This document shows positions 15,490-28,443 of a stretch of 64,000 bases of DNA, in pieces; position 1 is the first letter of the stretch; every line of letters begins with the position of its first letter. Where the stretch lies: the NCBI GenBank assembly GCA_964362665.1, contig CAYIFB010000004.1, positions 13,349 to 77,348 of the forward strand, read 5' to 3'. The stretch is from an uncultured Gammaproteobacteria bacterium (GTDB lineage Bacteria; Patescibacteriota; Microgenomatia; 2-02-FULL-39-11). The translations under genes and the position numbers were made by a program. The notes beneath the pieces are model-generated. The model was not told the DNA's origin, searched no databases, and saw nothing but the letters and a program-made list of their open reading frames with translations.

Positions 15490-17556
15490 ATGACCACATA
15501 CACTTGTCCTATGGATCCAGATATCATCACGGAACAACCCGGAAACTGTCCTAAATGTGGAATGAAACTTGTTCCGCTAACTGCAGTTGAACATGAAGGA
15601 CATGAAGATCACACCTCAATGGAAAAGGAATTCCGGAAACGGTTCTTTATTACACTCCCCTTTGTTTTTTTTACTATGCTGCTCTCTCCCAATATTCAGA
15701 AATGGCTGGGTTTTAGTCTTATATTTGAACAAAGTGAGATTATTCTATTTATTATCGGTACTTTTATATTCTTTTTCGGAGGTATTCCATTTTTTCGGGC
15801 AGCCAAAGGAGAGCTTTCTCATAAAAACCCCGGCATGATGACTTTAGTGGCTCTGGCCATAACAGTTGGTTTCACTTTCTCCGTCGCGGCAACCTTTCTA
15901 TTCCCTAGCGAATCACTTTATTGGGAAATCTCAACCTTAATATCAGTATTTTTACTCGGCCACTGGCTGGAAATGCGGGCTGTACGCGGAACCACCGGAG
16001 CACTGGCTGAACTGGCAAAACTTATTCCCCCATCGGCTCATCTTTTGAAAAACGGGACAACTGTCGAAGTAAAAACAAGTGAAGTCGTCAAAGGAGATAA
16101 GGTATTAGTCAAACCTGGAGAAAAAATCCCAATTGATGGAATTGTTGTTGATGGAGAAAGTTCAGTAAATGAATCAATGGTCACCGGAGAATCACGTCCT
16201 ATCGGAAAAACCAAAGGGAATAAAGTCATTGGCGGAACGATAAATCAGGATGGCGCCTTGACAATTGAAGTCACTAAAACAGGTTCAGAAACCGCTGTTT
16301 CTCAAATTATGAAATTAATCCGCGAGGCACAAAATTCCAAACCAAACGTCCAGCACCTGGCTGATCGTGCGGCTAATGTCCTCACGTTTGTGGCTCTTTT
16401 TGCCGGATCCGGAGCGTTCATTTATTGGTTTTTTATTGCGCCTTCCGGAGCTGTTTTTGCAGCAACACTTGCGGTTTCCGCGATTGTCGTCGCCTGTCCT
16501 CATGCTTTGGGGTTGGCGATACCAACTGTAACGACCATAACCTCAACTCTGGGGGCAAAAAACGGAATTCTCATTAAAGACATGAAAGGATTGGAAATCG
16601 CCCGGAAAATTGATTACGTCGTTTTTGATAAAACAGGTACACTTACCCGCGGTGAATTTGGTGTAGACAAAATAATAAAAACGAAAAAATCTTCTTTTTC
16701 AGAAGATGAATTGCTGATGCTCGCCTCTTCAGTTGAAACTAAATCCCAACATTCCATTGCTCAGGGAATCGTCAATGAAGCTAATAAAAAGATCGGCAGT
16801 ATTCCGGAAGTTTTAAATTTTAAATCATTTCCGGGACGCGGGGCGCAAGGAAAAGTAGACGGTAAAAGCGTTATAGTCGGCAATAAAAAACTCCTTGAAG
16901 AATTAAAAATTGAAATGGAAGAAATTGGTGTTTTAGGACAGGGAAAAACCCCGGTATATATTGTTGTTAATGATATTTTCCAGGGAACCATATATCTTGC
17001 CGATATTATTCGTGAAGAATCAAAAGAAGCCATAGCAAAACTCCATGAGATGGGAATAAAAACTGCCATGCTTACGGGTGATGCTCAAGATGTGGCAGAT
17101 GCTGTAGGAAAACAACTTCAGGTTGATACAATTTTTGCTCAGGTCTTGCCGGATGAAAAAGTAGATAAAGTGAAGCAGTTGCAAAAAGAGGGTCATATTG
17201 TGGCAATGGTTGGAGATGGGGTTAATGATGCCCCGTCTCTCACCCAATCCCATGTCGGAATTGCCATCGGTGCAGGTACTGATGTAGCGGTGGAATCAGC
17301 AGATATAGTTCTTATGAAAAACAACCCGCTTGATGTGGTCAAAGCGATTACACTCAGCCGCAAGACAAACACCAAAATGGTACAGAATCTCATCTGGGCC
17401 ACCGGATATAACATCTTTGCTATCCCGACCGCAGCAGGTTTATTTTATCCCTCATTTGGTATTTTACTTCGTCCTGAATGGGCTGCGCTTCTAATGAGCG
17501 CTTCATCAGTTATCGTTGTATTTAATGCTCTTTTATTGAGAAAAGCTAAATTATGA
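15490..17556 (+). CDS. copB: P1B-type heavy-metal ATPase, CopB-like (CPH motif)
   Basis: N-terminal CPMDP...CPKCGM metal-binding motif; TM6 motif CPH (IVVACPHALG); DKTGTLT; GDGVNDAP. Confidence 0.85.
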   Translation: MTTYTCPMDPDIITEQPGNCPKCGMKLVPLTAVEHEGHEDHTSMEKEFRKRFFITLPFVFFTMLLSPNIQKWLGFSLIFEQSEIILFIIGTFIFFFGGIPFFRAAKGELSHKNPGMMTLVALAITVGFTFSVAATFLFPSESLYWEISTLISVFLLGHWLEMRAVRGTTGALAELAKLIPPSAHLLKNGTTVEVKTSEVVKGDKVLVKPGEKIPIDGIVVDGESSVNESMVTGESRPIGKTKGNKVIGGTINQDGALTIEVTKTGSETAVSQIMKLIREAQNSKPNVQHLADRAANVLTFVALFAGSGAFIYWFFIAPSGAVFAATLAVSAIVVACPHALGLAIPTVTTITSTLGAKNGILIKDMKGLEIARKIDYVVFDKTGTLTRGEFGVDKIIKTKKSSFSEDELLMLASSVETKSQHSIAQGIVNEANKKIGSIPEVLNFKSFPGRGAQGKVDGKSVIVGNKKLLEELKIEMEEIGVLGQGKTPVYIVVNDIFQGTIYLADIIREESKEAIAKLHEMGIKTAMLTGDAQDVADAVGKQLQVDTIFAQVLPDEKVDKVKQLQKEGHIVAMVGDGVNDAPSLTQSHVGIAIGAGTDVAVESADIVLMKNNPLDVVKAITLSRKTNTKMVQNLIWATGYNIFAIPTAAGLFYPSFGILLRPEWAALLMSASSVIVVFNALLLRKAKL

Positions 17557-17747
17557 ATCTAATAACAAATAGTATACTAACTTGCCCATCCTGTAACAAA
17601 AAACAAACCGTAGAAATGCCAACTAATGCCTGCCAACATTTCTACAAATGTATTCACTGCAACAAATTACTCAAGCCCAAAAAAGGAGATTGCTGTGTAT
17701 TCTGTTCATATGCCGATACCAAGTGTCCACCAAAACAATCCGAATAA
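17553..17747 (+). CDS. Cysteine-rich small protein (64 aa, at least 9 Cys), probably metal-binding
   Basis: Its ATG overlaps the copB stop as ATGA, which indicates translational coupling. It contains CPSC, CIHC, GDCCVFC and KCPP motifs. Confidence 0.5.
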   Translation: MNLITNSILTCPSCNKKQTVEMPTNACQHFYKCIHCNKLLKPKKGDCCVFCSYADTKCPPKQSE

Positions 17748-17777: not shown

Positions 17778-18449
17778 ATGGGAAAAAATTATTACAAAAG
17801 ATTTGGAGTAGTACTGAGAAATCCCCTTTTTTCAGTTTATTTACGATGGGCATATGAACAGGGTTTGAGGGATGTAGAGTCATTGGGTATTCAGCCAAAC
17901 TTTAATAAAATGGGTTTTTCCTGTTTACTTTCCGGATGTGGCAATGAACAAACTGCCGATACATTTATACAGTTTATGATCCAAAGAAACAAAAATGCAA
18001 AGATTTACATTATTGATCTGGGCGATGAACAAATACAAGCCATACAAAAGCTGGTAGCTTTAAAATATAATGATTTTAGTATTGAAGTACATAAGTTAAA
18101 CGCTCTTGATTTGGCTAGAATCATCAATCCCAAATCATTGGATTGGATAGAAACTGACGGATTTATGGAATATTTTGATCACCAGTCTTTGAAAAAACTG
18201 CTTCAAATTTGGCATCTGCTCTTGAAAAAAGATGGATTTATTACCACTCGCGATTGTGTATCAGAAGGAAAATTGACGCAAGTTGCCGATTTTTTCAGAA
18301 TTAATACTGCAAATCTCTGGTTAGGAGTGAAATTGTTCGCACATACAAAACAGGATTTTGAAAATTTATTTCATACTATCGGTTTTAAACACTTTTTTGG
18401 TAATACATGGCTTTACACTTACCGAAGATTTGCTTTGATTAAATTATAA
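17778..18449 (+). CDS. Putative class I SAM-dependent methyltransferase
   Basis: Motif I-like LSGCGNEQ, motif II-like IIDLGD, and a motif III-like LKKDGFI block. Confidence 0.4.
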   Translation: MGKNYYKRFGVVLRNPLFSVYLRWAYEQGLRDVESLGIQPNFNKMGFSCLLSGCGNEQTADTFIQFMIQRNKNAKIYIIDLGDEQIQAIQKLVALKYNDFSIEVHKLNALDLARIINPKSLDWIETDGFMEYFDHQSLKKLLQIWHLLLKKDGFITTRDCVSEGKLTQVADFFRINTANLWLGVKLFAHTKQDFENLFHTIGFKHFFGNTWLYTYRRFALIKL

Positions 18450-18475
18450 ATACAGATGCACTCCTTAGAAATACA

Positions 18476-18505
18476 TTGACAGATACGCAATCTATAGTAT
18501 ATGAT
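18476..18505 (+). promoter_or_regulatory. Sigma70-like promoter for the padR-like gene, with an adjacent 10-bp palindrome
   Basis: TTGACA at 18476-18481, a 16-18 nt spacer, then TATATG/TATGAT. The palindrome ACATATATGT sits at 18510-18519. Confidence 0.4.
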
Positions 18506-18896
18506 ATTTACATATATGTGTAAGACTTGTGGGTGTTCATCTCGTTCAAGAGAAATCGGAAACATTGAACGGTTTATCGAACCATGTATTCTCCTTCTCT
18601 TGTCTAAAAGCCCATCACACGGTTATGGACTCATGGAAGATTTGGAAAAGCATTGCGGCGAAAAGGTAGATATCGGGGATTTATACCGGACACTCAGGCG
18701 GATGGAAAAAGATATTTGGGTGAAGTCTGATTGGGAAAAGAACGAAGCCGGTCCAGACAGAAGAACATATACAATTACTGCCGATGGAAAAAGCTTCTTA
18801 AAGTCTGCTGCCTCCTCTCTCATTCGTACTGATAAACTCATTCACAGGTTTCTGGAGGGTTATAAAAAGATGTATCAAATTAATACACTAATATGA
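18501..18896 (+). CDS. PadR-family transcriptional regulator with Cys-rich N-terminal extension
   Basis: PadR winged-helix blocks (HGYGLM, GPDRRTYTITADG). The N-terminus contains CKTCGC. An alternative start at 18516 is likely given the promoter position. Confidence 0.6.
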   Translation: MIFTYMCKTCGCSSRSREIGNIERFIEPCILLLLSKSPSHGYGLMEDLEKHCGEKVDIGDLYRTLRRMEKDIWVKSDWEKNEAGPDRRTYTITADGKSFLKSAASSLIRTDKLIHRFLEGYKKMYQINTLI

Positions 18897-19213
18897 AATT
18901 TGCAGTTATCCTTTCTACTAAAAATGCAGAAACCAACTGGAATGCGTTTAGACTTGCTAATCTGGCGCTTAGTAAAGGTGATGCTGTTTCCGTATTTCTG
19001 GTTGGCGAGGGGGTAGAGTATGGAAAGAATACTTCTGCTCAATTTGACATCACTCAACAAGTACAAAAATTTATGGAATCAGACGGGAAGATTATCGCCT
19101 GTGGCACCTGCATGGCAATTCGTAAACAAAAAAGCACCCAAGAATGCCCTGCCGGTGGGATTGAAGATTTATATTCTCTGATAGTTGTAAGTGACAAGGT
19201 GTTAACATTTTAA
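18893..19213 (+). CDS. DsrE/DsrF-like family protein
   Basis: Size of about 106 aa and a pattern typical of the DsrE/DsrF/TusD-like fold, including the ACGTCM Cys motif. It overlaps padR by 4 bp. Confidence 0.55.
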   Translation: MKFAVILSTKNAETNWNAFRLANLALSKGDAVSVFLVGEGVEYGKNTSAQFDITQQVQKFMESDGKIIACGTCMAIRKQKSTQECPAGGIEDLYSLIVVSDKVLTF

Positions 19214-19232
19214 TCAAGGAGGTGGATGAATT

Positions 19233-19364
19233 ATGATGGGAAATTACTATGGAAATATGATGGCTGGATGGGGAGTATTCGGGTTAATCACTTGGATACT
19301 AATTATTACATTTCTTGTTCTGGGCATTATGTATTTTTGGAAAGAAATTAACAGGAGGAAGTAA
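19233..19364 (+). CDS. Unannotated 43-aa single-TM peptide (MMGNYYGNMMAGWGVFGLITWILIITFLVLGIMYFWKEINRRK)
   Basis: AAGGAGG 9 nt upstream of the ATG; a hydrophobic helix. Its 3' end supplies the ribosome-binding site (AGGAGG) for the DUF302 gene. Confidence 0.4.
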   Translation: MMGNYYGNMMAGWGVFGLITWILIITFLVLGIMYFWKEINRRK

Positions 19365-19367
19365 ATT

Positions 19368-19751
19368 ATGAATATTGATTATACAGTTCGAACAAAAAAA
19401 TCATTTGATGAAGCAGTTGAAAGCGTGGCGGCCGAAACAGCAAAAGCAGGATTTCGCGTTCTTTATATCCATGATGTGAAGGAAACAGTCGGTAAGAAAG
19501 GATTTGAAATTGAACCATTGAAAATCATAGAAATTTGTAATGCTAAGAATGCTTTTTATGCTCTTAAAACAGATATCCGTCTCTCTCTTTTTCTTCCTTG
19601 TAAAATCAATGTCTATGAGAAAAACGGTAAGATAATTATTTCCGGGATGAGACCGCTTATCATAAAACAGATTTTTCCATCTTTAGATATCCAGGAATTG
19701 CTACAGGAAGTTGAAGCTGCAGTCAAAACAATAGTTGACAGGTCAAAATAA
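19368..19751 (+). CDS. DUF302 domain protein
   Basis: Conserved CN(A) and LPC blocks and the length are typical of DUF302. Confidence 0.7.
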   Translation: MNIDYTVRTKKSFDEAVESVAAETAKAGFRVLYIHDVKETVGKKGFEIEPLKIIEICNAKNAFYALKTDIRLSLFLPCKINVYEKNGKIIISGMRPLIIKQIFPSLDIQELLQEVEAAVKTIVDRSK

Positions 19752-19799
19752 AGTTACTCATCAAATCTTCATAAGTGAATTGTTACTATACAATTTATT

Positions 19800-21281
19800 A
19801 TGAACAAAACAACAATACCGATAAAAGGCATGCATTGCCGTTCCTGCGAACTTTTGATTGAAGATGAGTTAAAAACAGTTTCCGGAGTAAAAAGGGTAGA
19901 AGTAAGTTGGAAAAAGGCCTGTGCGGATGTTTACTATGAAAAAGAAGTTAACAATGATGATATCCGACAAGTCATAGTGAAAGCAGGTTATAAAATAGGT
20001 ATTGAAGAAAAAAAGCCTTTATTTTCGAAAAATTTAGAGGACTATGTGGAAGTAGCCGTCGCAGGGGTTGCTCTTTTCTTCATGTATATCGCTCTTAATA
20101 TATTTGGCCTAAACCAGTATTTCAATGTTTCAACCGTCAGCCCATCCGGTTTAATTCCCATATTTCTCATTGGACTGACTGCCGGTTTTTCTACCTGCAT
20201 GGCTCTGGTTGGAGGATTAATACTTGGAGTTTCAGCCCGTTTTTCTGAAAAGCATCCCGATGCGAATACCCTCACGAAATTTAAGCCTCATATATATTTC
20301 AATACGGGAAGAATCGTCTCTTATGTTTTTTTGGGCGGTATAATTGGAATCATCGGTTCACTTTTTCAACTGTCCAGCTTTAGCTTGGGGTTGATGACTT
20401 TGGGCGTAGCTCTCGTCATGCTCACCTTGGGAATCCAACTGACGGGACTTTTTCCCAAAATAAGCAGTGCCGGCTTTACCATCCCTACAGGTATCAGCAG
20501 GTTAATCGGAATAAATGATTATCAGAAAAATACTTACAGCCACAGAAATTCTTTTGTACTCGGTGCTTTGACGTTTTTCCTGCCCTGCGGGTTTACCCAA
20601 GCAATGCAGCTTCTGGCGATTTCGAGCGGCAGTTTTTGGAAAGGCGCAACCATTATGGGTGTCTTTGCCCTTGGTACTGCTCCGGGACTTCTGGGAATAG
20701 GCAGTATTACTTCCATTCTAAAAGGATTTTTTGCACAGAAATTCTTCAGGTTTGCCGGTGTCGTAGTAACAGTCTTGGCTTTATATAACATGCAAAATGG
20801 ATTCAATCTTATGGGACTTTCTCCTATATTTTCTTTATCTTCAGGCAATAATGCCTTAGCTGCTTCTAACGTTCCAAATATTGTAGATGGAGTTCAAATA
20901 ATAAAAATGACCCAATCCGGCAACGGTTACAGCCCAAACGAATTTACTGTTGTAAGAGGAACCCCGGTAAAATGGATAATTACTTCAGTGAATTCCAATT
21001 CCTGCGCCAGCAGTATTATTTCCCAGAAATTAAATATCCGAAAAAATCTGGTATCAGGAGAAAATGTGATTGAGTTTACTCCAACAAATACAGGAAGAAT
21101 ACCGTTCTCCTGTAGCATGGGCATGTTTACTGGTGTAATTAATGTTGTTGAGAAAGGTTCTAAAGTATCAACTCTGCCACAGAATAATATTGTACAAGCA
21201 CAAGCAGTCAAAACAGGAGGATCGTGCGGTATGGGCGGAGGCTGCGGCTGTGGCGCAAGAAACCAGGCATTAGCACAGTAA
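19800..21281 (+). CDS. Multidomain protein: N-terminal HMA metal-binding domain, polytopic permease core with TM cysteines, C-terminal cupredoxin-like domain, Gly/Cys-rich tail
   Basis: GMHCRSC in the HMA fold; TM Cys in STCMA and LPCGF (DsbD/CcdA- or TauE-like core); C-terminal beta domain with FSCSMGM; tail GGSCGMGGGCGCG. Confidence 0.55.
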   Translation: MNKTTIPIKGMHCRSCELLIEDELKTVSGVKRVEVSWKKACADVYYEKEVNNDDIRQVIVKAGYKIGIEEKKPLFSKNLEDYVEVAVAGVALFFMYIALNIFGLNQYFNVSTVSPSGLIPIFLIGLTAGFSTCMALVGGLILGVSARFSEKHPDANTLTKFKPHIYFNTGRIVSYVFLGGIIGIIGSLFQLSSFSLGLMTLGVALVMLTLGIQLTGLFPKISSAGFTIPTGISRLIGINDYQKNTYSHRNSFVLGALTFFLPCGFTQAMQLLAISSGSFWKGATIMGVFALGTAPGLLGIGSITSILKGFFAQKFFRFAGVVVTVLALYNMQNGFNLMGLSPIFSLSSGNNALAASNVPNIVDGVQIIKMTQSGNGYSPNEFTVVRGTPVKWIITSVNSNSCASSIISQKLNIRKNLVSGENVIEFTPTNTGRIPFSCSMGMFTGVINVVEKGSKVSTLPQNNIVQAQAVKTGGSCGMGGGCGCGARNQALAQ

Positions 21282-21286
21282 AATCT

Positions 21287-21502
21287 ATGAATAATTATAT
21301 CTTAAATCTAAAAATATCCGGTATAACTTGTGAAGCTTGCATTAAACTGATAAAGAAAAAAGTTGGGAAAATTATCGGTGTTGAAGATGTAGTTATTAAG
21401 GACAATAATGGAGAGACTTTGATTGTAAGCGAAAATCAATTAAAAATTTCTGATATCGAAATAGCTTTAAAAGGTCTGCCTTACATAGTGCAAGAAGCAT
21501 AA
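21287..21502 (+). CDS. copZ: Copper chaperone CopZ-like (single HMA domain)
   Basis: GITCEACI motif and a 71-aa ferredoxin-like HMA domain. The ORF-track start at 21224 overlaps the previous gene in another frame and is rejected. Confidence 0.7.
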
Positions 21503-21504
21503 AT

Positions 21505-24483
21505 ATGTCAAAGAATATAAATCTGACTATTTCGGGAATGCATTGTGGATCATGTGAAACTCTGATAAAAGATGAACTGTCAGAAATCTCAGGAGTGAAA
21601 GTCGAAAGTATTGATCATAAAAGCGGAAAAGCATTACTATTTCTTGAGAAAGAAAATATCCAGCTTAATGAATTGATAGAAGCGATTAAACGGGCAGGTT
21701 ATCAGGCCAAAATTGATTTGGAGCAAGATGTGCAGGTCGGAAAAACCGGGAATGGAAAATCTGCTCATGAAAACGAAGTTTTATTTCAACATAATATTAC
21801 GAAATCAAATAAACCATTTAAAATTACGGTTGAATCTGAAGTTATCGCAGAAGGAAAGATTTCCAAAGACTCTAAAGGTGAACCATATTTTGACGGTACT
21901 GTAAAAAACAAAAAGAATACTAAAGTATCCGTCCCAGAAGGACAGGTGGGTGTCAATAATTTCCTGCAAGAAATTTTATCCTCAATAGATACAGTAAAAC
22001 TGTTTGGCCGAGTAGAATTTCCCTCAAATCCTAGTGATAATAACGGGATAACTCAAATTACAACTTCCGGGGTTGCCAATAAGGTCGCCGTTTCCGAAGA
22101 AAAGAAAGATACATTAAAAACAAACAGCCAGCAAAGAATAAATTTATCTTTATCAGGCATGCATTGTTCTTCCTGTGCCGCCATTATTGAAAGGTCTCTC
22201 AAAAAGCTGGCAGGTGTATCAAAAGCTAATGTTAATTTCGCTGCAGAAAAAGCTCTCGTTTTTTATGATGAAAATAGCACTAAGGTTGACAATCTTATCT
22301 CTGCCGTTAAAAAAGCAGGTTACCTTGCAACTGTTGTGAAAGAAAATGATACCGAGTTTGAGAGGAATAAAAGAGAAAAAGAAATAAAAAATCTTTTTGA
22401 GGCATTCATGAATAGTCTTCTGCTTTCTTTACCTATGATATATTTCATGTTATTTGATTTTATAGCTTGGATACCCGGAAAAGTATTACTCACTCCCTTT
22501 ATCGGAATATTTTCCCTTTTATTATCGACACCGGTTCAGTTTATTATCGGTTTAAGGTTTTATAAGGGCATGTGGTCGGCTCTTAGAATGAAAACCTTCA
22601 ACATGGACAGTCTGATTGCAATAGGTACATCCACAGCCTATTTCTACTCACTTCTCAATTTCGCATATTATTATATAAGGACGGGATCGCTTATCGGTCT
22701 TACGGGCACAAAGATTCCGGAATTATATTTTGAAACTGCGGCATTTCTAATCACTTTTGTCATCTTGGGCAAATGGCTGGAACTGCGGGCAAAGGGACGA
22801 ACATCTGATGCCATAAAAAAATTGATGGGCCTAGCCGCTAAAACTGCCAGAGTCGTAAGAAATGGAAATACAGAAGATATATCAATTGATGAAGTAAAAG
22901 TCGGTGATATTATTTTGGTTCGTCCGGGAGAGAAAATTCCAATAGACGGAAAAATCACAAAAGGCTCCTCCAGCGTCGATGAATCCATGCTCACTGGAGA
23001 AAGCATTCCTGTTGAAAAACATATCGGAGACATAGTTACCGGTGCAACCATGAATAAGATGGGCAGTTTTGAGTTTACGGCCACACGGGTTGGATCAGAA
23101 ACAACTCTGGCCCAAATTATAAGACTGATTGAAGAAGCTCAAGGGTCTAAAGCTCCTATTCAGGCATTTGCGGATAAAATTTCAGCTTGGTTCGTGCCTC
23201 TGGTAATTACTATTGCCATCCTGACATTCGTATCATGGTATTTCTTTTTGGGAGCATCTCTTGCTTTTTCTTTAATGGCATTCACGTCGGTAATTGTTAT
23301 CGCCTGTCCATGCGCGTTAGGATTGGCCACTCCTACTGCTCTTATGGTTGGTACTGGCAAAGGGGCGGAATACGGTGTACTAATTAAGGGTGGAGAGCCT
23401 TTGGAGTCTGCCTGCAAAATAAATACAGTTATTTTTGATAAGACGGGAACTTTAACAAACGGAAAACCAATAGTAACAGACGTTATGGGTATCGGAAATT
23501 TGAATAATGATTATATTCTCTCTTTGTCTGCAAGTCTGGAAAAATCATCAGAACACCCTTTGGCTGAAGCAATAATAAATTATGCAAAGGAGGAACGAAT
23601 CACAGTTAAAGATGCAAACAATTTCCAGGCTATTGCCGGACATGGTGTAACCGGAGAAATAGACACAGTAAAGTATTATTTCGGTAACAGAAAACTTATT
23701 ACTGATGAGGCGAGATTATCTATTGATAATATTGATCTAAAACTAGAGCGACTTGAAGATCAGGGTAAAACAGCTATGATCCTTTCAAATAATAAAGAAA
23801 TATTAGGTTTGATTGCGGTGGCTGATACTGTAAAAGAAACTTCAAAAGAAGCGGTGGCGAGTCTTAAGAAACGCGGTATTGAAATTTATATGATTACAGG
23901 CGATAACAGAAGGACTGCAGAAGCGATCGCCCGTGAGGTTGGAATTGATCATGTACTTGCTGAGGTATTGCCGGAGGATAAAGCCAGTGAAGTAAAAAAG
24001 ATTCAGGAAAATGGAAAAAAGGTTGCCATGGTTGGCGACGGAATTAATGATGCACCAGCCTTAGCGCAAGCTGATATAGGTATTGCCATGGGTAGTGGAA
24101 CTGACGTAGCTATGGAAGCGGGTGGAATCGTAATCATGAAAAATGACCTAAGAGATGTTGTAACTGCTTTTGATTTATCGAAGGAAACAATGGGCAAGAT
24201 CAAACAAAATATGTTTTTCGCGCTTTTTTATAATGTGATTGGAATCCCGATTGCTGCCAGAGTTTTTATGTCGATAGGTTTAGTGCTTAAACCGGAGCTG
24301 GCAGGACTGGCAATGGCATTCTCTTCCATATCTGTTGTGTCGAATTCCCTTCTACTGAGATATTTCCGTCCCGGAAAAAGGAATTATATTTCTATGATTG
24401 CGCCAATTGCAATGATGCTTTTCTTCACTTTTTTCTTTATAGAATTTGGCAGAATAAGCAGTTCTATGGCTGCAGGAAAATAG
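21505..24483 (+). CDS. copA: P1B-1 copper(I)-translocating ATPase CopA with two N-terminal HMA domains
   Basis: Two GMHCxSC motifs, CPC in TM6 ([10 protein letters not shown]), DKTGTLT and GDGINDAP. There is an unusually long linker of about 140 aa between the HMA domains. Confidence 0.9.
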
Positions 24484-24549
24484 TTCGCTTTCTTCATAAT
24501 ATCTTAATAATCCTCTAGGTATAATCCCCTTATTAGGAGGTAAAACAAT

Positions 24550-25086
24550 ATGAAGTTGTCTCGTTTTAGTAATATGGGTACCGATAAACTGATTTTTGCC
24601 TTGATTGGTGGATTTACGGTAATAATCCTTATTTTAATTGTCATTTTTTCCATCAATGAAGGAAAGCAAAGTCAGACCGCCGCGGATATTACCACATTTT
24701 CCGTAAAAGATAAAGACAAGCCGGAGGCTAGTGTCTCCTCCGTATTTTCAGACCTTGGCAAGATGAAAGTCAAAGATGAGAAATCTGCTGAGTTTACTAT
24801 TGAAAATAAAGGCACTAAAACTCTTTCTCTGTTTAAAGTCAAATCATCTTGCGATTGCACCTTTGGACAAATAACTATCAATGGCAACAAAAGCCCCGAA
24901 TTTGGTATGCATTCTCAAAATAGCTGGACAGGAAGCCTTGCTCCAGGTAAAAAAGCCATGCTAAATGTTACCTATAAACCATATATAATGCCGGTTAAAG
25001 GTATTATAACCCGTGATGTTTATATGCAGACAAATGACCCGCAAAAACCTCAACTTACTTTTACTGTAAAAGCGTTTGTTGAATAA
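24550..25086 (+). CDS. DUF1573 domain protein, membrane-anchored
   Basis: SCDCT motif inside an Ig-like repeat pattern typical of DUF1573 (SCGCT); N-terminal signal anchor; GGAGG ribosome-binding site. Confidence 0.6.
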   Translation: MKLSRFSNMGTDKLIFALIGGFTVIILILIVIFSINEGKQSQTAADITTFSVKDKDKPEASVSSVFSDLGKMKVKDEKSAEFTIENKGTKTLSLFKVKSSCDCTFGQITINGNKSPEFGMHSQNSWTGSLAPGKKAMLNVTYKPYIMPVKGIITRDVYMQTNDPQKPQLTFTVKAFVE

Positions 25087-25089
25087 AGT

Positions 25090-25920
25090 ATGAATTCAAA
25101 TCTTTTTTTCGGTGTATCCTTGACAGCTTCTTTTTTGGGAGGTATGGTTGCCCTTTTTGCCCCCTGTTGTATAACTTTTCTTTTTCCGTCATATCTCGGA
25201 ACAATTTTTAAAGAACGAAAAAGGATAGTTTTTCTTACACTTATCTTTGCCCTTGGTTTGGGATCAATTCTCGTTCCTGTTGCATTGGGAATGAAAATAA
25301 TAGTATCTTTCTTTGACCAATTTCATACTACCACCTATCTTTTCGGATCACTTCTTATGTTTATTCTCGGCCTGATGACTCTTTTTGACGCCAAATTGAT
25401 GCTGCCTCTCCCCCATTTCACCATGCCAAATAAAACAACAGTTGGTTCAACCTATCTTCTGGGACTATTTTCAGGCATTACTTCTTCCTGTTGTGCGCCG
25501 GTACTTTTTGGTGCGATTACTCTTTCGTCACTATCTCCCACTATCATTACTTCACTTATCGTTTCTCTGGTATACGTTCTTGGTATAGTATTTCCATTGT
25601 TCTTTCTCTCTTTGTTTTATGAAAAAATTACAAATCAATATCTTTATAACTTCAAACAGCGAGTAGAAAAACCGCTAAAAATACTTGCCTCTTTCACTTT
25701 CATGATTTCATCAATCATTATTGCTTATATGGCTTTAACTGATAGAATTAAAATGGATTCGAATATGGAATACGGCCGGGGTCTGAGGAATTTTATTTTT
25801 GATATTTCAGGAAAATTACAGAATCCTATTTTGGATATTTTGGTACTTGTCGGAATTATTCTTTTATTTAAAATTATCTTAAAGGAGGCACATAATGAAA
25901 ACAAAAAAGTTTCTAAATAA
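25090..25920 (+). CDS. Integral membrane protein with two Cys-Cys dyads in TM helices (DsbD/CcdA-superfamily-like or metal permease)
   Basis: FAPCC in TM1 and SSCCAP in a later TM suggest an inverted-repeat topology; about 6 TM helices. Confidence 0.45.
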   Translation: MNSNLFFGVSLTASFLGGMVALFAPCCITFLFPSYLGTIFKERKRIVFLTLIFALGLGSILVPVALGMKIIVSFFDQFHTTTYLFGSLLMFILGLMTLFDAKLMLPLPHFTMPNKTTVGSTYLLGLFSGITSSCCAPVLFGAITLSSLSPTIITSLIVSLVYVLGIVFPLFFLSLFYEKITNQYLYNFKQRVEKPLKILASFTFMISSIIIAYMALTDRIKMDSNMEYGRGLRNFIFDISGKLQNPILDILVLVGIILLFKIILKEAHNENKKVSK

Positions 25921-26857
25921 TATCAAATCCAGGAAAGGCTATTTTTTAGGTCTGGCAACAGGTTTACTTATTACTATTCTAGTTCTGAAACTTGTTCCAC
26001 TTTTATTAGTTAAATCACAAACCATATCTTACACACTACCGTTTTTGAAAAAACAGCCAACACTTACTCCTGACCCGGTGAAACAACAGGAAGAAATCAC
26101 TAAATCCGTATTTCCGGATAAAGTAAATCTGCAGGTCTCGTATGGGGATGTTATCGTAAAAATGGTTCAATACGGCGCGATTGATAAAGAAAAGTTTTTC
26201 AAGTTATATGAGGGACGGGGAGGATTGACTGAGGATGAGAAAAAGTTATTTGAAAGTTCCTCTGACGAACCTATAATTGTGAACCAGCAAAATGCCAACC
26301 TGATATTAAATCTTTTGTGGCCGCTTGGTATTGCTAATCAAACAAACGTGCTGGCCGAGGGCCCGATGGGAACACAATATAAAAAAGAAGTTGGTAATTT
26401 TGCTTCCACCGGAGGATGGACACTTGGCAAAGAACCAGGAGGAAGTCTTTTTAATAAATACCCTATTCTGCCATTATCCTCCGATGAGGAAAAAATCGTG
26501 ACTGAAATTGCTCAGAATATCTATCGGCCATGCTGTGGTAATAGCACTTATTTCCCGGACTGTAATCATGGAGCAGCTATGCTGGGATTTATAGAAATAG
26601 CCGTCAAACAAGAAATGTCAAAGGAAGATATTTATAAAAAAGCCTTAGCATTAAATTCTTATTGGTTCCCACAAACATATGCCGAGTTGGGAATATATTT
26701 CAAACAAAAGAAAAATATTTCATGGGATAAAGTAGATGCCAAACTTGTGTTAGGAATTGACTACTCAAGCGGACAGGGATATAGAGTAATCAATAAAGAG
26801 TTACAGACTGAAGGTCTTCTTCCTAAAGTTGAGGGCGGTGGCGGATGCGGAGTGTAG
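25895..26857 (+). CDS. Exported or anchored hypothetical protein with conserved Cys cluster and Gly/Cys C-terminus
   Basis: AAGGAGG ribosome-binding site; N-terminal TM anchor; RPCCGNSTYFPDCNHGAAM motif; ends in VEGGGGCGV. It overlaps the upstream gene by 26 bp. Confidence 0.45.
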   Translation: MKTKKFLNNIKSRKGYFLGLATGLLITILVLKLVPLLLVKSQTISYTLPFLKKQPTLTPDPVKQQEEITKSVFPDKVNLQVSYGDVIVKMVQYGAIDKEKFFKLYEGRGGLTEDEKKLFESSSDEPIIVNQQNANLILNLLWPLGIANQTNVLAEGPMGTQYKKEVGNFASTGGWTLGKEPGGSLFNKYPILPLSSDEEKIVTEIAQNIYRPCCGNSTYFPDCNHGAAMLGFIEIAVKQEMSKEDIYKKALALNSYWFPQTYAELGIYFKQKKNISWDKVDAKLVLGIDYSSGQGYRVINKELQTEGLLPKVEGGGGCGV

Positions 26858-26929
26858 AAAATATTTGCCATTTAGACAGTAATTGTCTATAATTTTTAGG
26901 GTTAATAAAATTTTAGGAGGTTAATAAAT

Positions 26930-27421
26930 ATGGCAGATACACAGGCGAGTCCCGAAAACAAAGGTGTTAATCCTTTAATTTGGGTAGTAGTTATTGTCTT
27001 GGTGGTTGTTGGAGGCGGTTATTATTTTATGAGCGCAAATAAAAAGACATCTGAACCCGCGACAAAGGAAGTCAATACAGCGCCTTCAATCCAAAAAGAT
27101 TCCAATTCTCCAGTTACAAGCGGATCAGCTTCCAAGGTAACTGAAAATATAAAAACGATAGAGATAGAGGGAGGATCTTTCTATTTCAAACCGGATAAAA
27201 TCACAGTCAAAGTTGGTGACCGTATTAAAATCTTACTCAAATCTGTGGATAAAATTCATAACTTATATATTGACGAATTTAATGTCAAAAGTTCTGATGC
27301 TAAAAGCGGTGAAGCTACTACAGTAGAATTTACCGCCGGGGAAAAAGGTTCATACGAGTTTTATTGTGCCATCGGACAGCATCGGGCAATGGGAATGAAA
27401 GGCACCCTGATTGTAGAGTAA
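26930..27421 (+). CDS. Membrane-anchored cupredoxin (type-1 copper site) domain protein
   Basis: N-terminal TM segment; C-terminal cupredoxin with the ligand pattern C-x4-H-x3-M (YCAIGQHRAMGM). Confidence 0.7.
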   Translation: MADTQASPENKGVNPLIWVVVIVLVVVGGGYYFMSANKKTSEPATKEVNTAPSIQKDSNSPVTSGSASKVTENIKTIEIEGGSFYFKPDKITVKVGDRIKILLKSVDKIHNLYIDEFNVKSSDAKSGEATTVEFTAGEKGSYEFYCAIGQHRAMGMKGTLIVE

Positions 27422-27443
27422 ATAATTCTTTATATTTTTTAAA

Positions 27444-27473
27444 ATGCTCCCCTCATCCGGGAGCATTTTTTTA
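27444..27473. terminator. Bidirectional rho-independent terminator between convergent genes
   Basis: Stem ATGCTCCC/GGGAGCAT (8 bp), 7-nt loop, followed by T7. It is preceded by an A-run on the opposite strand. Confidence 0.7.
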
Positions 27474-27474
27474 C

Positions 27475-28443
27475 CTAAATAAATTCAATAATTAAAAACA
27501 TCAGATAGGCTACGATAAGCAGAATTCCTTCCCATCTTTCAAGACTGTGTTTGGTGCGAATGAATATAAAAAACATCACAAAAGTCACGATAAAAGTAAA
27601 TATCGCTATGTAATATTCAGATATAATCTGTACGGTAATAGGACTTATAAGCGCGGTTAAACCGATGATAAACGTCCCGTTTGCTACAAGTGAACCGAGC
27701 AAATTCCCCAAAAACATTTCCGATTCTTTTTTCTTTATCGCTTCAATTTCAAAAGCCAGTTCAGGAAGAGAAGTTCCCACTGCAACAATAAATAATCCGA
27801 CTAAAATTATAGGTATACCCATCCCCTTCGCAAACGAACTGCTAAGTCTGACAATCATATCAGAGCTAAATAGTATGGCTGAAATTCCCAAAAAGGTATA
27901 CATAAAATCTTTGGCTACGTGGTTGTGATGAATTCTCCGTAGAAGTCCGACAATAATCCCGTCTTCATTTTCAAAATATTTCCGTCTCCGGTTTAATATC
28001 AGATAATTATAAAATCCATACATTGAGATAAGTATTAGTCCGTCAACTCTGGACAAGGTTTTATCAAGAAGAAGAAGAAAAGGTATTATTCCGGCAATGA
28101 ACGCATGCAATAGATCTTTTGCCTCAATATCATGGTTTTTTACTTTTAAAGATCCGCCAATAACTGCCGCTAAACCGACTATCAGCGATATATCAGCGAT
28201 GTTTGACCCTATCACATTCCCTAAAGAAAGAATCGGCTGATTTTCCAATGCTGAAGATATTCCCACAAATAGTTCCGGCAGTGATGTAGCCATTCCGATA
28301 ATTATTGCTGTCAGATAAAAACTGCCCAATTTTGTTTTGCGGGCAATTAACTTAAGATGAACAACAATAATGTCTGTTGCCTTAATTAGAATAATGGAAA
28401 ATAAGATGATGCCCAGAAACTGAAGTATCGGCAGGATAAACAT
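27475..28443 (-). CDS. Ca2+/Na+ (cation) antiporter, CaCA family (YrbG-like)
   Basis: Two alpha-repeat motifs: GNVIGSNIADISL and GTSLPEL. Confidence 0.8.
   Translation of the reverse strand: MFILPILQFLGIILFSIILIKATDIIVVHLKLIARKTKLGSFYLTAIIIGMATSLPELFVGISSALENQPILSLGNVIGSNIADISLIVGLAAVIGGSLKVKNHDIEAKDLLHAFIAGIIPFLLLLDKTLSRVDGLILISMYGFYNYLILNRRRKYFENEDGIIVGLLRRIHHNHVAKDFMYTFLGISAILFSSDMIVRLSSSFAKGMGIPIILVGLFIVAVGTSLPELAFEIEAIKKKESEMFLGNLLGSLVANGTFIIGLTALISPITVQIISEYYIAIFTFIVTFVMFFIFIRTKHSLERWEGILLIVAYLMFLIIEFI

Follow-up and report, generated by a model that had tools for sequence, protein, structure and literature searches.

The window analysed here, a stretch of 64,000 nucleotides from contig CAYIFB010000004.1 of assembly GCA_964362665.1, contains on its forward strand, which also carries all other features described below, a gene (19800..21281, ATG start) for a fusion protein of 493 residues consisting of an HMA domain, an additional transmembrane helix (TM0), a DsbD_2 membrane core, a CupA-like domain and a Cys-Gly tail, and this protein probably passes copper (or electrons) over the membrane. 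The reading that we favour, at a probability of roughly 0.45, is that of a transmembrane Cu(I) relay, lined with Cys and Met, which functions together with the copper chaperone CopZ and the copper ATPase CopA. Three ligand stations, all of them invariant and each assigned by the predicted topology to a compartment of its own, would form such a relay for something thiophilic: the MxCxxC motif of the cytoplasmic HMA domain, C133 and C263 with invariant methionines in the membrane, and C402, C438, M440 and M442 together with the Cys-Gly arm on the outside.

Regarding domain content, Pfam (reporting threshold E ≤ 0.01) detected HMA (PF00403) at residues 5-65 with 35.8 bits (gathering score 24.8), DsbD_2 (PF13386) at residues 121-329 with 114.3 bits and E = 9e-33, covering profile positions 2-199 of 199 (gathering score 24.9), and Cupredoxin_1 at residues 362-447 with 37.7 bits (gathering score 27 bits). 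The HMA domain (19812..19994), delimited by Pfam and by the invariance of C13 and C16 in its GMHCRSC motif, shows the secondary structure order E-H-E-E-H across residues 2-61 in an AlphaFold2 (AF2) model of the protein (predicted local distance difference test score, pLDDT, 73.5 overall and about 80-89 in the C-terminal beta-domain). A protein search of 5.8 billion sequences gave 4,941 matches at E ≤ 1e-5, and the same three Pfam domains were present in 120/120 listed homologs. In an alignment of 79 of these 120 homologs, with 52-89% identity to the query, the invariant residues include C13 and C16 of the HMA domain, C133 and M134 in TM1, C263 in TM4 (inside FFLPCGFTQAMQ), the further core methionines M207, M269 and M286, the beta-domain residues C402, C438, M440 and M442, and C476 and C484 of the tail, while the remaining tail cysteine, C482, is kept in more than 90% of the sequences. 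The four-part architecture is not due to chance, because the ligand residues are invariant across the 79 homologs. Pfam and the motifs of the protein (GMHCRSC, STCMA, LPCGF and FSCSMGM, with the tail GGSCGMGGGCGCGARNQALAQ and the C-terminal end TGGSCGMGGGCGCGARNQALAQ) confirm the four parts listed in a preliminary description of the gene, namely an HMA domain with MxCxxC, a core with transmembrane cysteines, a cupredoxin-fold domain and a CGCG tail.

Seven long helices are present in the AF2 model (residues 79-101, 118-151, 162-188, 193-215, 248-276, 279-306 and 310-337). The first of these, TM0 (20034..20102), was recognised from AF2 secondary structure, hydropathy and actinobacterial sequences that start at TM1; the others make up the six-helix DsbD_2 core (residues 117-337; 20148..20810), as delimited by Pfam, the AF2 helix breaks and the invariant residues. 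The second helix (TM1) is broken at 130-131 and the fifth (TM4) at 261-263, and these breaks are the sites of C133 (codon 20196-20198) and C263 (codon 20586-20588). Averaged over the 79 sequences, loops 2 and 4 contain 3.5 and 5.7 Lys and Arg residues, respectively, and loops 1, 3 and 5 about 1, 0 and 0. Since there are seven transmembrane helices and the loop charges follow the positive-inside pattern, the HMA domain is predicted to lie inside and the CupA-like domain and the tail outside, the relative placement of the domains being based on helix count and charge bias. This prediction agrees with the opposite-sided arrangement on which the relay of the preliminary description depended. Relatives that lack the HMA domain begin at TM1, have six helices and lack TM0, and the HMA proteins that accompany them as partners are about 73 residues long and have no signal peptide. 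TM0 thus appears to do exactly what keeps a fused HMA domain in the cytoplasm while the core begins outside.

The C-terminal domain (residues 362-451; 20883..21152), assigned from PDB sequence matches, Foldseek and residue invariance, is by its predicted fold and its ligands a CupA-type Cu(I) domain of the pattern C...CxMxM. Among PDB sequences only two structures matched it, the N-terminal metal-binding domain of S. pneumoniae CopA (4f2f, E = 1.4e-7) and CupA (2mry/4f2e, E = 5.6e-7), and in the phmmer alignment C402, C438, M440 and M442 are in register with C74, C111, M113 and M115 of CupA, which form the bis-thiolate S1 and Met-rich S2 sites of a binuclear Cu(I) cluster (PMC7558416, PMC5646241). 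Similarly, the best PDB match of the AF2 model in Foldseek was CupA (4f2e, TM-score 0.87, root-mean-square deviation 1.2 Å over 93 columns), followed by the CopA metal-binding domain (4f2f, TM-score 0.85), with CuA and blue-copper domains ranking lower. The domain is therefore cupredoxin-like in fold, as proposed in the preliminary description, which had also noted that Cys and Met ligands are present and that His is missing. The observation is correct, but it does not indicate a degenerate blue-copper domain: the absence of His is expected because the site is of the CupA Cu(I) type and not a type-1 copper site. A type-1 blue-copper identity was rejected, as there is no PF00127 match, there are no His ligands and the motif is CxMxM. 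The suggested kinship with a stand-alone cupredoxin encoded at 26930-27421 holds as a distant one; identity between the two is only 21% over 94 residues, and the closest solved relatives of the fused domain are CupA and the CopA metal-binding domain.

The likeness to CupA extends to the cupredoxin-like fold (TM-score 0.85-0.87, root-mean-square deviation 1.2-1.4 Å), the four ligands and the joint occurrence with a gene for a Cu(I) P1B-ATPase. The differences lie in location and architecture. CupA stands alone, is held by a single N-terminal anchor, faces the cytoplasm and has been reported only in a few streptococci (PMC7558416), whereas the fused domain follows seven transmembrane helices, is predicted to be extracytoplasmic, often occurs in tandem and is widespread in the candidate phyla radiation (CPR) and other phyla. 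In addition, the partner CopA in the window carries two HMA metal-binding domains, not cupredoxin-type ones.

The C-terminal arm (residues 455-493; 21162..21278), with the pattern C476-GMGGG-C482-G-C484-G, was defined by conservation and is disordered in the model (pLDDT < 35). It is the end of the protein in the query, as originally described; in most relatives the same motif is a linker, since the listed homologs are mostly about 600 residues long and their Cys-Gly motif leads to a second beta-domain with CAMG(V/I/M), a few of them carrying three beta-domains. The possibility that the gene is a truncated pseudogene of the 600-residue form was rejected, as copZ starts 8 bp past its stop codon and its closest relatives (84-89% identity) are of the short form too, with an identical C-terminus. 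Further afield, the best 150 cluster representatives are typically about 450 residues long and have no tail; a CGCG-type tail or linker is present in 4/150 and other additional C-terminal cysteines in 30/150. Some distant representatives end in C-x7-C (for example CDSSVQSCL or CNPKIQDCI) and others in GGGCCGG (representatives with such alternative tails are P0174, P0188, P0199, P0200, P0212, P0216, P0240, P0242 and P0244), and this variety suggests that the flexible C-terminal Cys arm arose in several forms.

The architecture was initially thought to be unusual, a view that its distribution contradicts. An exhaustive HMMER search of 1.84 billion representatives (clustered at 50% identity) found 6,859 family clusters at E ≤ 1e-3 and 1,064 at E ≤ 1e-30, with all three motif sets in 120/150 of the best representatives, and at least 590 loci matched in species-representative genomes, in the CPR and beyond. 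Nearly all of the best 80 of these loci are labelled or recognisable as Patescibacteria/CPR, including Gottesman-, Roizman-, Levy-, Ames-, Moran-, Falkow-, Magasanik-, Uhr-, Buchanan- and Berkelbacteria, WWE3, Gracilibacteria and Saccharibacteria, and the rest are metagenome bins titled ‘uncultured Gammaproteobacteria’, Pseudomonadales, Bdellovibrionales or Udaeobacter. The protein of the window itself occurs with 100% identity in assemblies whose record names point to Hainich groundwater (Hain_H51, 0.1/0.2 µm).

In the window, the gene is followed after 8 bp by copZ (21290..21502; identified by Pfam), encoding an HMA chaperone with the motif GITCEAC, and copZ is followed after 2 bp by copA (21505..24483; identified by NCBIfam), encoding a Cu(I) ATPase of the P1B type that has two metal-binding domains of the HMA kind, so that the position directly upstream of copZ-copA is as first reported. 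The link to copper proposed at the same time is strengthened by the relatives: among the 62 of the best 80 loci that had enough flanking sequence to assess adjacency, 58 have a gene for a CopA-type ATPase directly downstream on the same strand and two more have it adjacent in another arrangement, with copZ lying between the fusion gene and the CopA gene in 27/80 loci.

Outside the CPR, the fused three-domain form is also found in Acetoanaerobium (Clostridia); the replicon concerned (L081, NZ_CP154629.1, Acetoanaerobium noterae ‘plasmid pTPELB2’) is 2.63 Mb long with 4 annotated PLSDB features and looks like a chromosome. On annotated plasmids of Tsukamurella, Mycolicibacterium, Streptomyces, Deinococcus and Chlorohelix a split form was detected, in which a gene for DsbD_2 plus Cupredoxin_1 precedes a small HMA gene; in the Actinobacteria, Deinococcus and Chloroflexota the HMA domain is thus encoded separately and directly downstream. 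The gene directly upstream of the split pair encodes a P1B-ATPase in Tsukamurella and Mycolicibacterium, Streptomyces liliifuscus has such a gene adjacent to the pair, and genes encoding CcdA and/or TlpA are present in the same stretch in all three actinobacterial records. Across five unrelated lineages the HMA domain belongs to the fusion or has a gene of its own immediately after it, and by this Rosetta-stone argument the system obligately includes a metal-binding partner in the cytoplasm.

The core belongs to the same Pfam clan as CcdA and DsbD (Transporter Classification 5.A.1, PF02683, structure 5vkv), with which it shares six helices, a Cys at each of the TM1 and TM4 helix breaks and, as predicted for the fusion protein, a core N-terminus on the outside, as well as, with DsbD, the fusion of soluble Cys-bearing domains to the core. 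The query nevertheless matches DsbD_2 and not DsbD_TM (PF02683, no match at E ≤ 0.01), has STCM in TM1 in place of Pro-Cys, has invariant methionines flanking the cysteines, and combines the core with a cytoplasmic HMA domain instead of a thioredoxin and with an external Cu(I) chaperone fold instead of a thioredoxin or Ig-like redox domain. A profile of the membrane core found no match among PDB sequences even at E ≤ 10, and in Foldseek the AF2 model of the core alone gave CcdA 5vkv as the best TM-score (0.42/0.49) at a non-significant E = 1.1. Comparison by hhalign with two annotated CcdA proteins gave a probability of 1-3% from a local FF-x-PC match only; the same local match, not significant, was obtained with a 276-residue Cys-containing membrane protein encoded downstream of copA in the window, and comparing the TM1-3 half with the TM4-6 half detected no internal 3+3 repeat. 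The Acetoanaerobium family member matches PF02683 with 36.8 bits (cutoff 27.1) besides DsbD_2, so that homology of the core to CcdA is suggested by two things, clan membership in Pfam and this one bridging sequence.

For the favoured Cu(I) relay the following route can be envisaged. The metal-binding domains of CopA take Cu(I) from CopZ, and the HMA domain of the fusion protein, which shares 41% and 35% identity with the first and second metal-binding domains of CopA and has no significant match to the CopZ of the window, would carry Cu(I) that was probably likewise delivered by CopZ. Ligand exchange would then move the ion on to the Cys/Met site in the membrane, a site that would be open to each side in turn, and from there to the external CupA-like domain and its arm, where it could be buffered or handed over to extracellular acceptors; within the operon of CopZ and CopA this would provide an ATP-independent copper route or a surface copper acceptor. 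Four observations favour the transfer of metal: an HMA domain serves as the cytoplasmic partner in all cases and is here close to the metal-binding domains of CopA itself; invariant methionines surround the transmembrane cysteines; the external domain has the fold of a Cu(I) chaperone with its transfer (S2) site intact; and reductant modules of the canonical CcdA/TlpA kind are encoded nearby by genes of their own. Given the CcdA/TlpA genes of the actinobacterial islands and the CcdA-like gene of the window, a dedicated path for reductant would already be present. That copper is the substrate, that metal and not electrons crosses the membrane and that it moves outwards we infer. The outward direction appears more sensible because of the CopZ-CopA operon and because of the exporter bias of the LysE superfamily, whose members are mostly secondary exporters of metals or amino acids (PMC4608589). 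Proteins with HMA and DsbD_2 (COG2836, in part with DUF2318) have been predicted to belong to the CsoR copper regulon in gut Firmicutes (PMC4938975); they share the HMA and DsbD_2 module and the predicted copper regulation, and differ in having DUF2318 as the external domain in place of the CupA-like domain, their function being likewise a prediction.

In its widest form the proposal, which we hold to be possible but doubtful, would describe an ATP-independent copper wire that begins at a cytosolic HMA domain, crosses the membrane by way of a Cys/Met site and ends outside the cell at binuclear sites of the CupA type, one to three in number and linked by Cys-Gly arms; such a wire would be a standard partner of CopA in the CPR, common in Gram-positives, would load extracytoplasmic copper proteins or serve as a Cu(I) buffer at the surface, and would represent a branch of the DsbD fold converted to a metal carrier.

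Several points weigh against a Cu(I) relay. Literature searches found no experimental or functional study of any family member; the core falls into the DsbD clan, whose characterised members move electrons, and one member of the family matches DsbD_TM; the direction of transport cannot be derived from the sequence; a passive copper route beside an ATP-driven pump has no obvious energetic logic; merA and merB occur near two relatives, and the metal could be another thiophilic ion; and the confidence of the AF2 model is moderate (pLDDT 73.5).

The main rival is a conduit for electrons of the DsbD/CcdA kind, in which the transmembrane Cys pair would bring cytoplasmic reducing equivalents to the external CupA-like domain and the Cys-Gly arm, either to keep or reset their thiols for the capture of Cu(I) released by CopA or to convert Cu(II) into Cu(I) at the surface of the cell, with the HMA domain acting as a copper-sensing or regulatory module like the N-terminal metal-binding domains of CopA. 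The full-length DsbD_2 match, the conserved cysteines, one at the break of TM1 and one at that of TM4, the score of the Clostridia member above the DsbD_TM cutoff and the rank of CcdA 5vkv as the best (though not significant) TM-score for the core all fit this explanation, as does the in vitro reduction of Cu(II) by C74 and C111 of CupA, for which the source of re-reduction is stated to be unknown (PMC5646241); moreover, external cysteines in a cell that has no periplasm would oxidise unless they were reduced. We nonetheless consider it rather unlikely, as a relay fed by thioredoxin leaves unexplained the obligate HMA partner, which in every lineage examined is part of the protein or encoded beside it, there is no Pro-Cys motif in TM1 and invariant methionines surround the cysteines instead, the separate CcdA/TlpA genes of the same islands would make a second reductant conduit redundant, and the match to CcdA is not significant by either profile or fold.

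The mer system transfers mercury through a Cys relay from MerP via MerT to NmerA. An importer built along these lines, with the CupA-like domain in the place of MerP, the transmembrane Cys pair in that of MerT and the HMA domain in that of NmerA, would take up Hg(II), Cu(I) or Ag(I) as its thiophilic metal and deliver it inwards to reduction by MerA or to CopZ/CopA. The three-station Cys relay formally follows the same logic, and the fusion protein would have in common with the Mer relay, including the MerTP and MerT-CopZ fusions, that ligand exchange without ATP moves the metal between an HMA domain, a Cys pair in the membrane and another soluble Cys site. In addition, the gene directly after the split pair in Tsukamurella is merA, in Deinococcus merB/MerR are nearby, and NCBIfam relates the HMA domain to MerP and to its counterparts in MerTP fusions. 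Such an importer is improbable all the same. The NCBIfam matches to MerTP, MerP and MerT/CopZ fusions are all confined to residues 2-66, with none outside the HMA domain, which is predicted to be cytoplasmic in the fusion protein; the external station has a cupredoxin fold and an S2 site, CxMxM, that is typical of Cu(I); the core shows no homology to MerT, MerC, MerF, MerE or MerH; the operon partner is CopA and not MerA in nearly all loci (58/62 informative CPR loci, where mer genes were not among the proteins searched for); the mer genes found belong to multi-metal islands that also hold genes for a multicopper oxidase and P1B-ATPases; and importing copper to export it again would be futile. 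Membership of the core in the MerT, MerC, MerF, MerE or MerH families was rejected, as its transmembrane cysteines are single and non-vicinal and the Mer matches cover the HMA domain only, and MerH of M. marinum pMM23 was rejected as a relative of the core on an hhalign probability of 0.1%. On the Tsukamurella tyrosinosolvens plasmid the split pair lies between a P1B-ATPase gene and merA with a multicopper oxidase gene (L082, 6000-10500), and in view of this merA neighbourhood the metal specificity of the actinobacterial branch may be different or may include mercury.

A sulfite or organosulfonate exporter of the TauE/SafE type that carries its metal-binding domains by chance, as might be read from the annotation of homologs at NCBI and JGI as ‘sulfite exporter TauE/SafE family protein’ and from the DsrE-like and DUF302 genes upstream in the window, is effectively refuted by the family scan, in which TauE (PF01925) had no match at E ≤ 0.01 in Pfam and none in NCBIfam and DsbD_2 was the sole match of the core, by the invariant residues, which are Cys/Met metal ligands, and by the conserved neighbour, which is CopA and not a gene of sulfur metabolism (DsrE and DUF302 occur near the fusion gene in only 3-6/80 loci). 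Of the families named as candidates in the preliminary description, DsbD_2 and Cupredoxin_1 were thus found and TauE/SafE was not.

Export of copper from bacteria is attributed to P1B-ATPases, resistance-nodulation-division (RND) systems and soluble chaperones, and we know of no established secondary copper carrier lined with Cys. With regard to classification, the fusion protein can be described as a Pfam HMA plus DsbD_2 member that is CupA-like in predicted fold and ligands, though not in location or architecture, and as a putative Cys-based transmembrane relay. Its parts (HMA, the DsbD_2 clan, the CupA fold) are known, while their assembly and the predicted extracellular CupA-type site appeared in no paper found; literature searches on DsbD_2/COG2836/PF13386, on TauE with CopA and HMA, on CupA-like proteins and on copper in Patescibacteria returned only the regulon prediction (PMC4938975) as relevant. 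In the reduced CPR genomes the family almost always adjoins copA, and it extends to Actinobacteria, Deinococcus, Chloroflexota and Clostridia. If copper is what it moves, it would constitute a new type of transporter and give the CupA fold a new, extracellular role; if it moves electrons, it would supply the reductant that is missing from the model of Cu(II) reduction by CupA. Under either reading the annotation as sulfite exporter misleads across thousands of genomes.

Regarding the remaining genes around copZ-copA, a scan of 18300-27600 for sigma-70 promoters and terminators gave results not above shuffled expectation, and for this reason no operon boundaries are claimed from it. Directly after copA follow three genes with Cys motifs (24550..26857) that may represent an extracytoplasmic thiol-reduction module, a possible accessory to the fusion protein whose membership in the system is uncertain; such a trio lies near the fusion gene in 11-13/80 CPR loci. 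Its first gene encodes a DUF1573 protein with an SCDC motif. The second encodes the 276-residue CcdA-like membrane protein mentioned above, which has PCC and SCC motifs and no Pfam match and gives a weak alignment with a Streptomyces CcdA (E = 7e-4) in which both Cys motifs are aligned. The product of the third, with 320 residues and no Pfam match, contains the motif CCGNSTYFPDCNHG and ends in EGGGGCGV, a Gly-Cys tail resembling that of the fusion protein. Downstream of the trio, the stand-alone cupredoxin (26930-27421) is a membrane-anchored member of the plastocyanin family (PF00127) in which the His/Cys/His/Met ligands are present; it is a possible extracytoplasmic copper client, and a homolog lies near the fusion gene in only 3/80 loci.

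Directly upstream of the fusion gene, the segment 18501-19751 encodes a PadR-family regulator whose unusual N-terminus is rich in Cys (MCKTCGCSS), which could be the metal sensor of the operon, and the DsrE-like and DUF302 proteins; DsrE and DUF302 genes also precede the fusion gene in two of the other loci (L006 and L009). Further upstream, a second heavy-metal P-type ATPase of 688 residues (15490-17556) has the transmembrane motif CPH and, in place of an HMA domain, an N-terminal zinc-ribbon-like motif, CPMDPD...CPKCGM; to judge from its sequence motifs it is probably of the CopB type, in which case the region would encode two copper pumps. The start of the next gene (17553-17747) overlaps the stop of this ATPase gene, and its product is a Cys-rich protein of 64 residues that matches the GDCCVxC domain-containing (seleno)protein family of NCBIfam (E = 1e-27).

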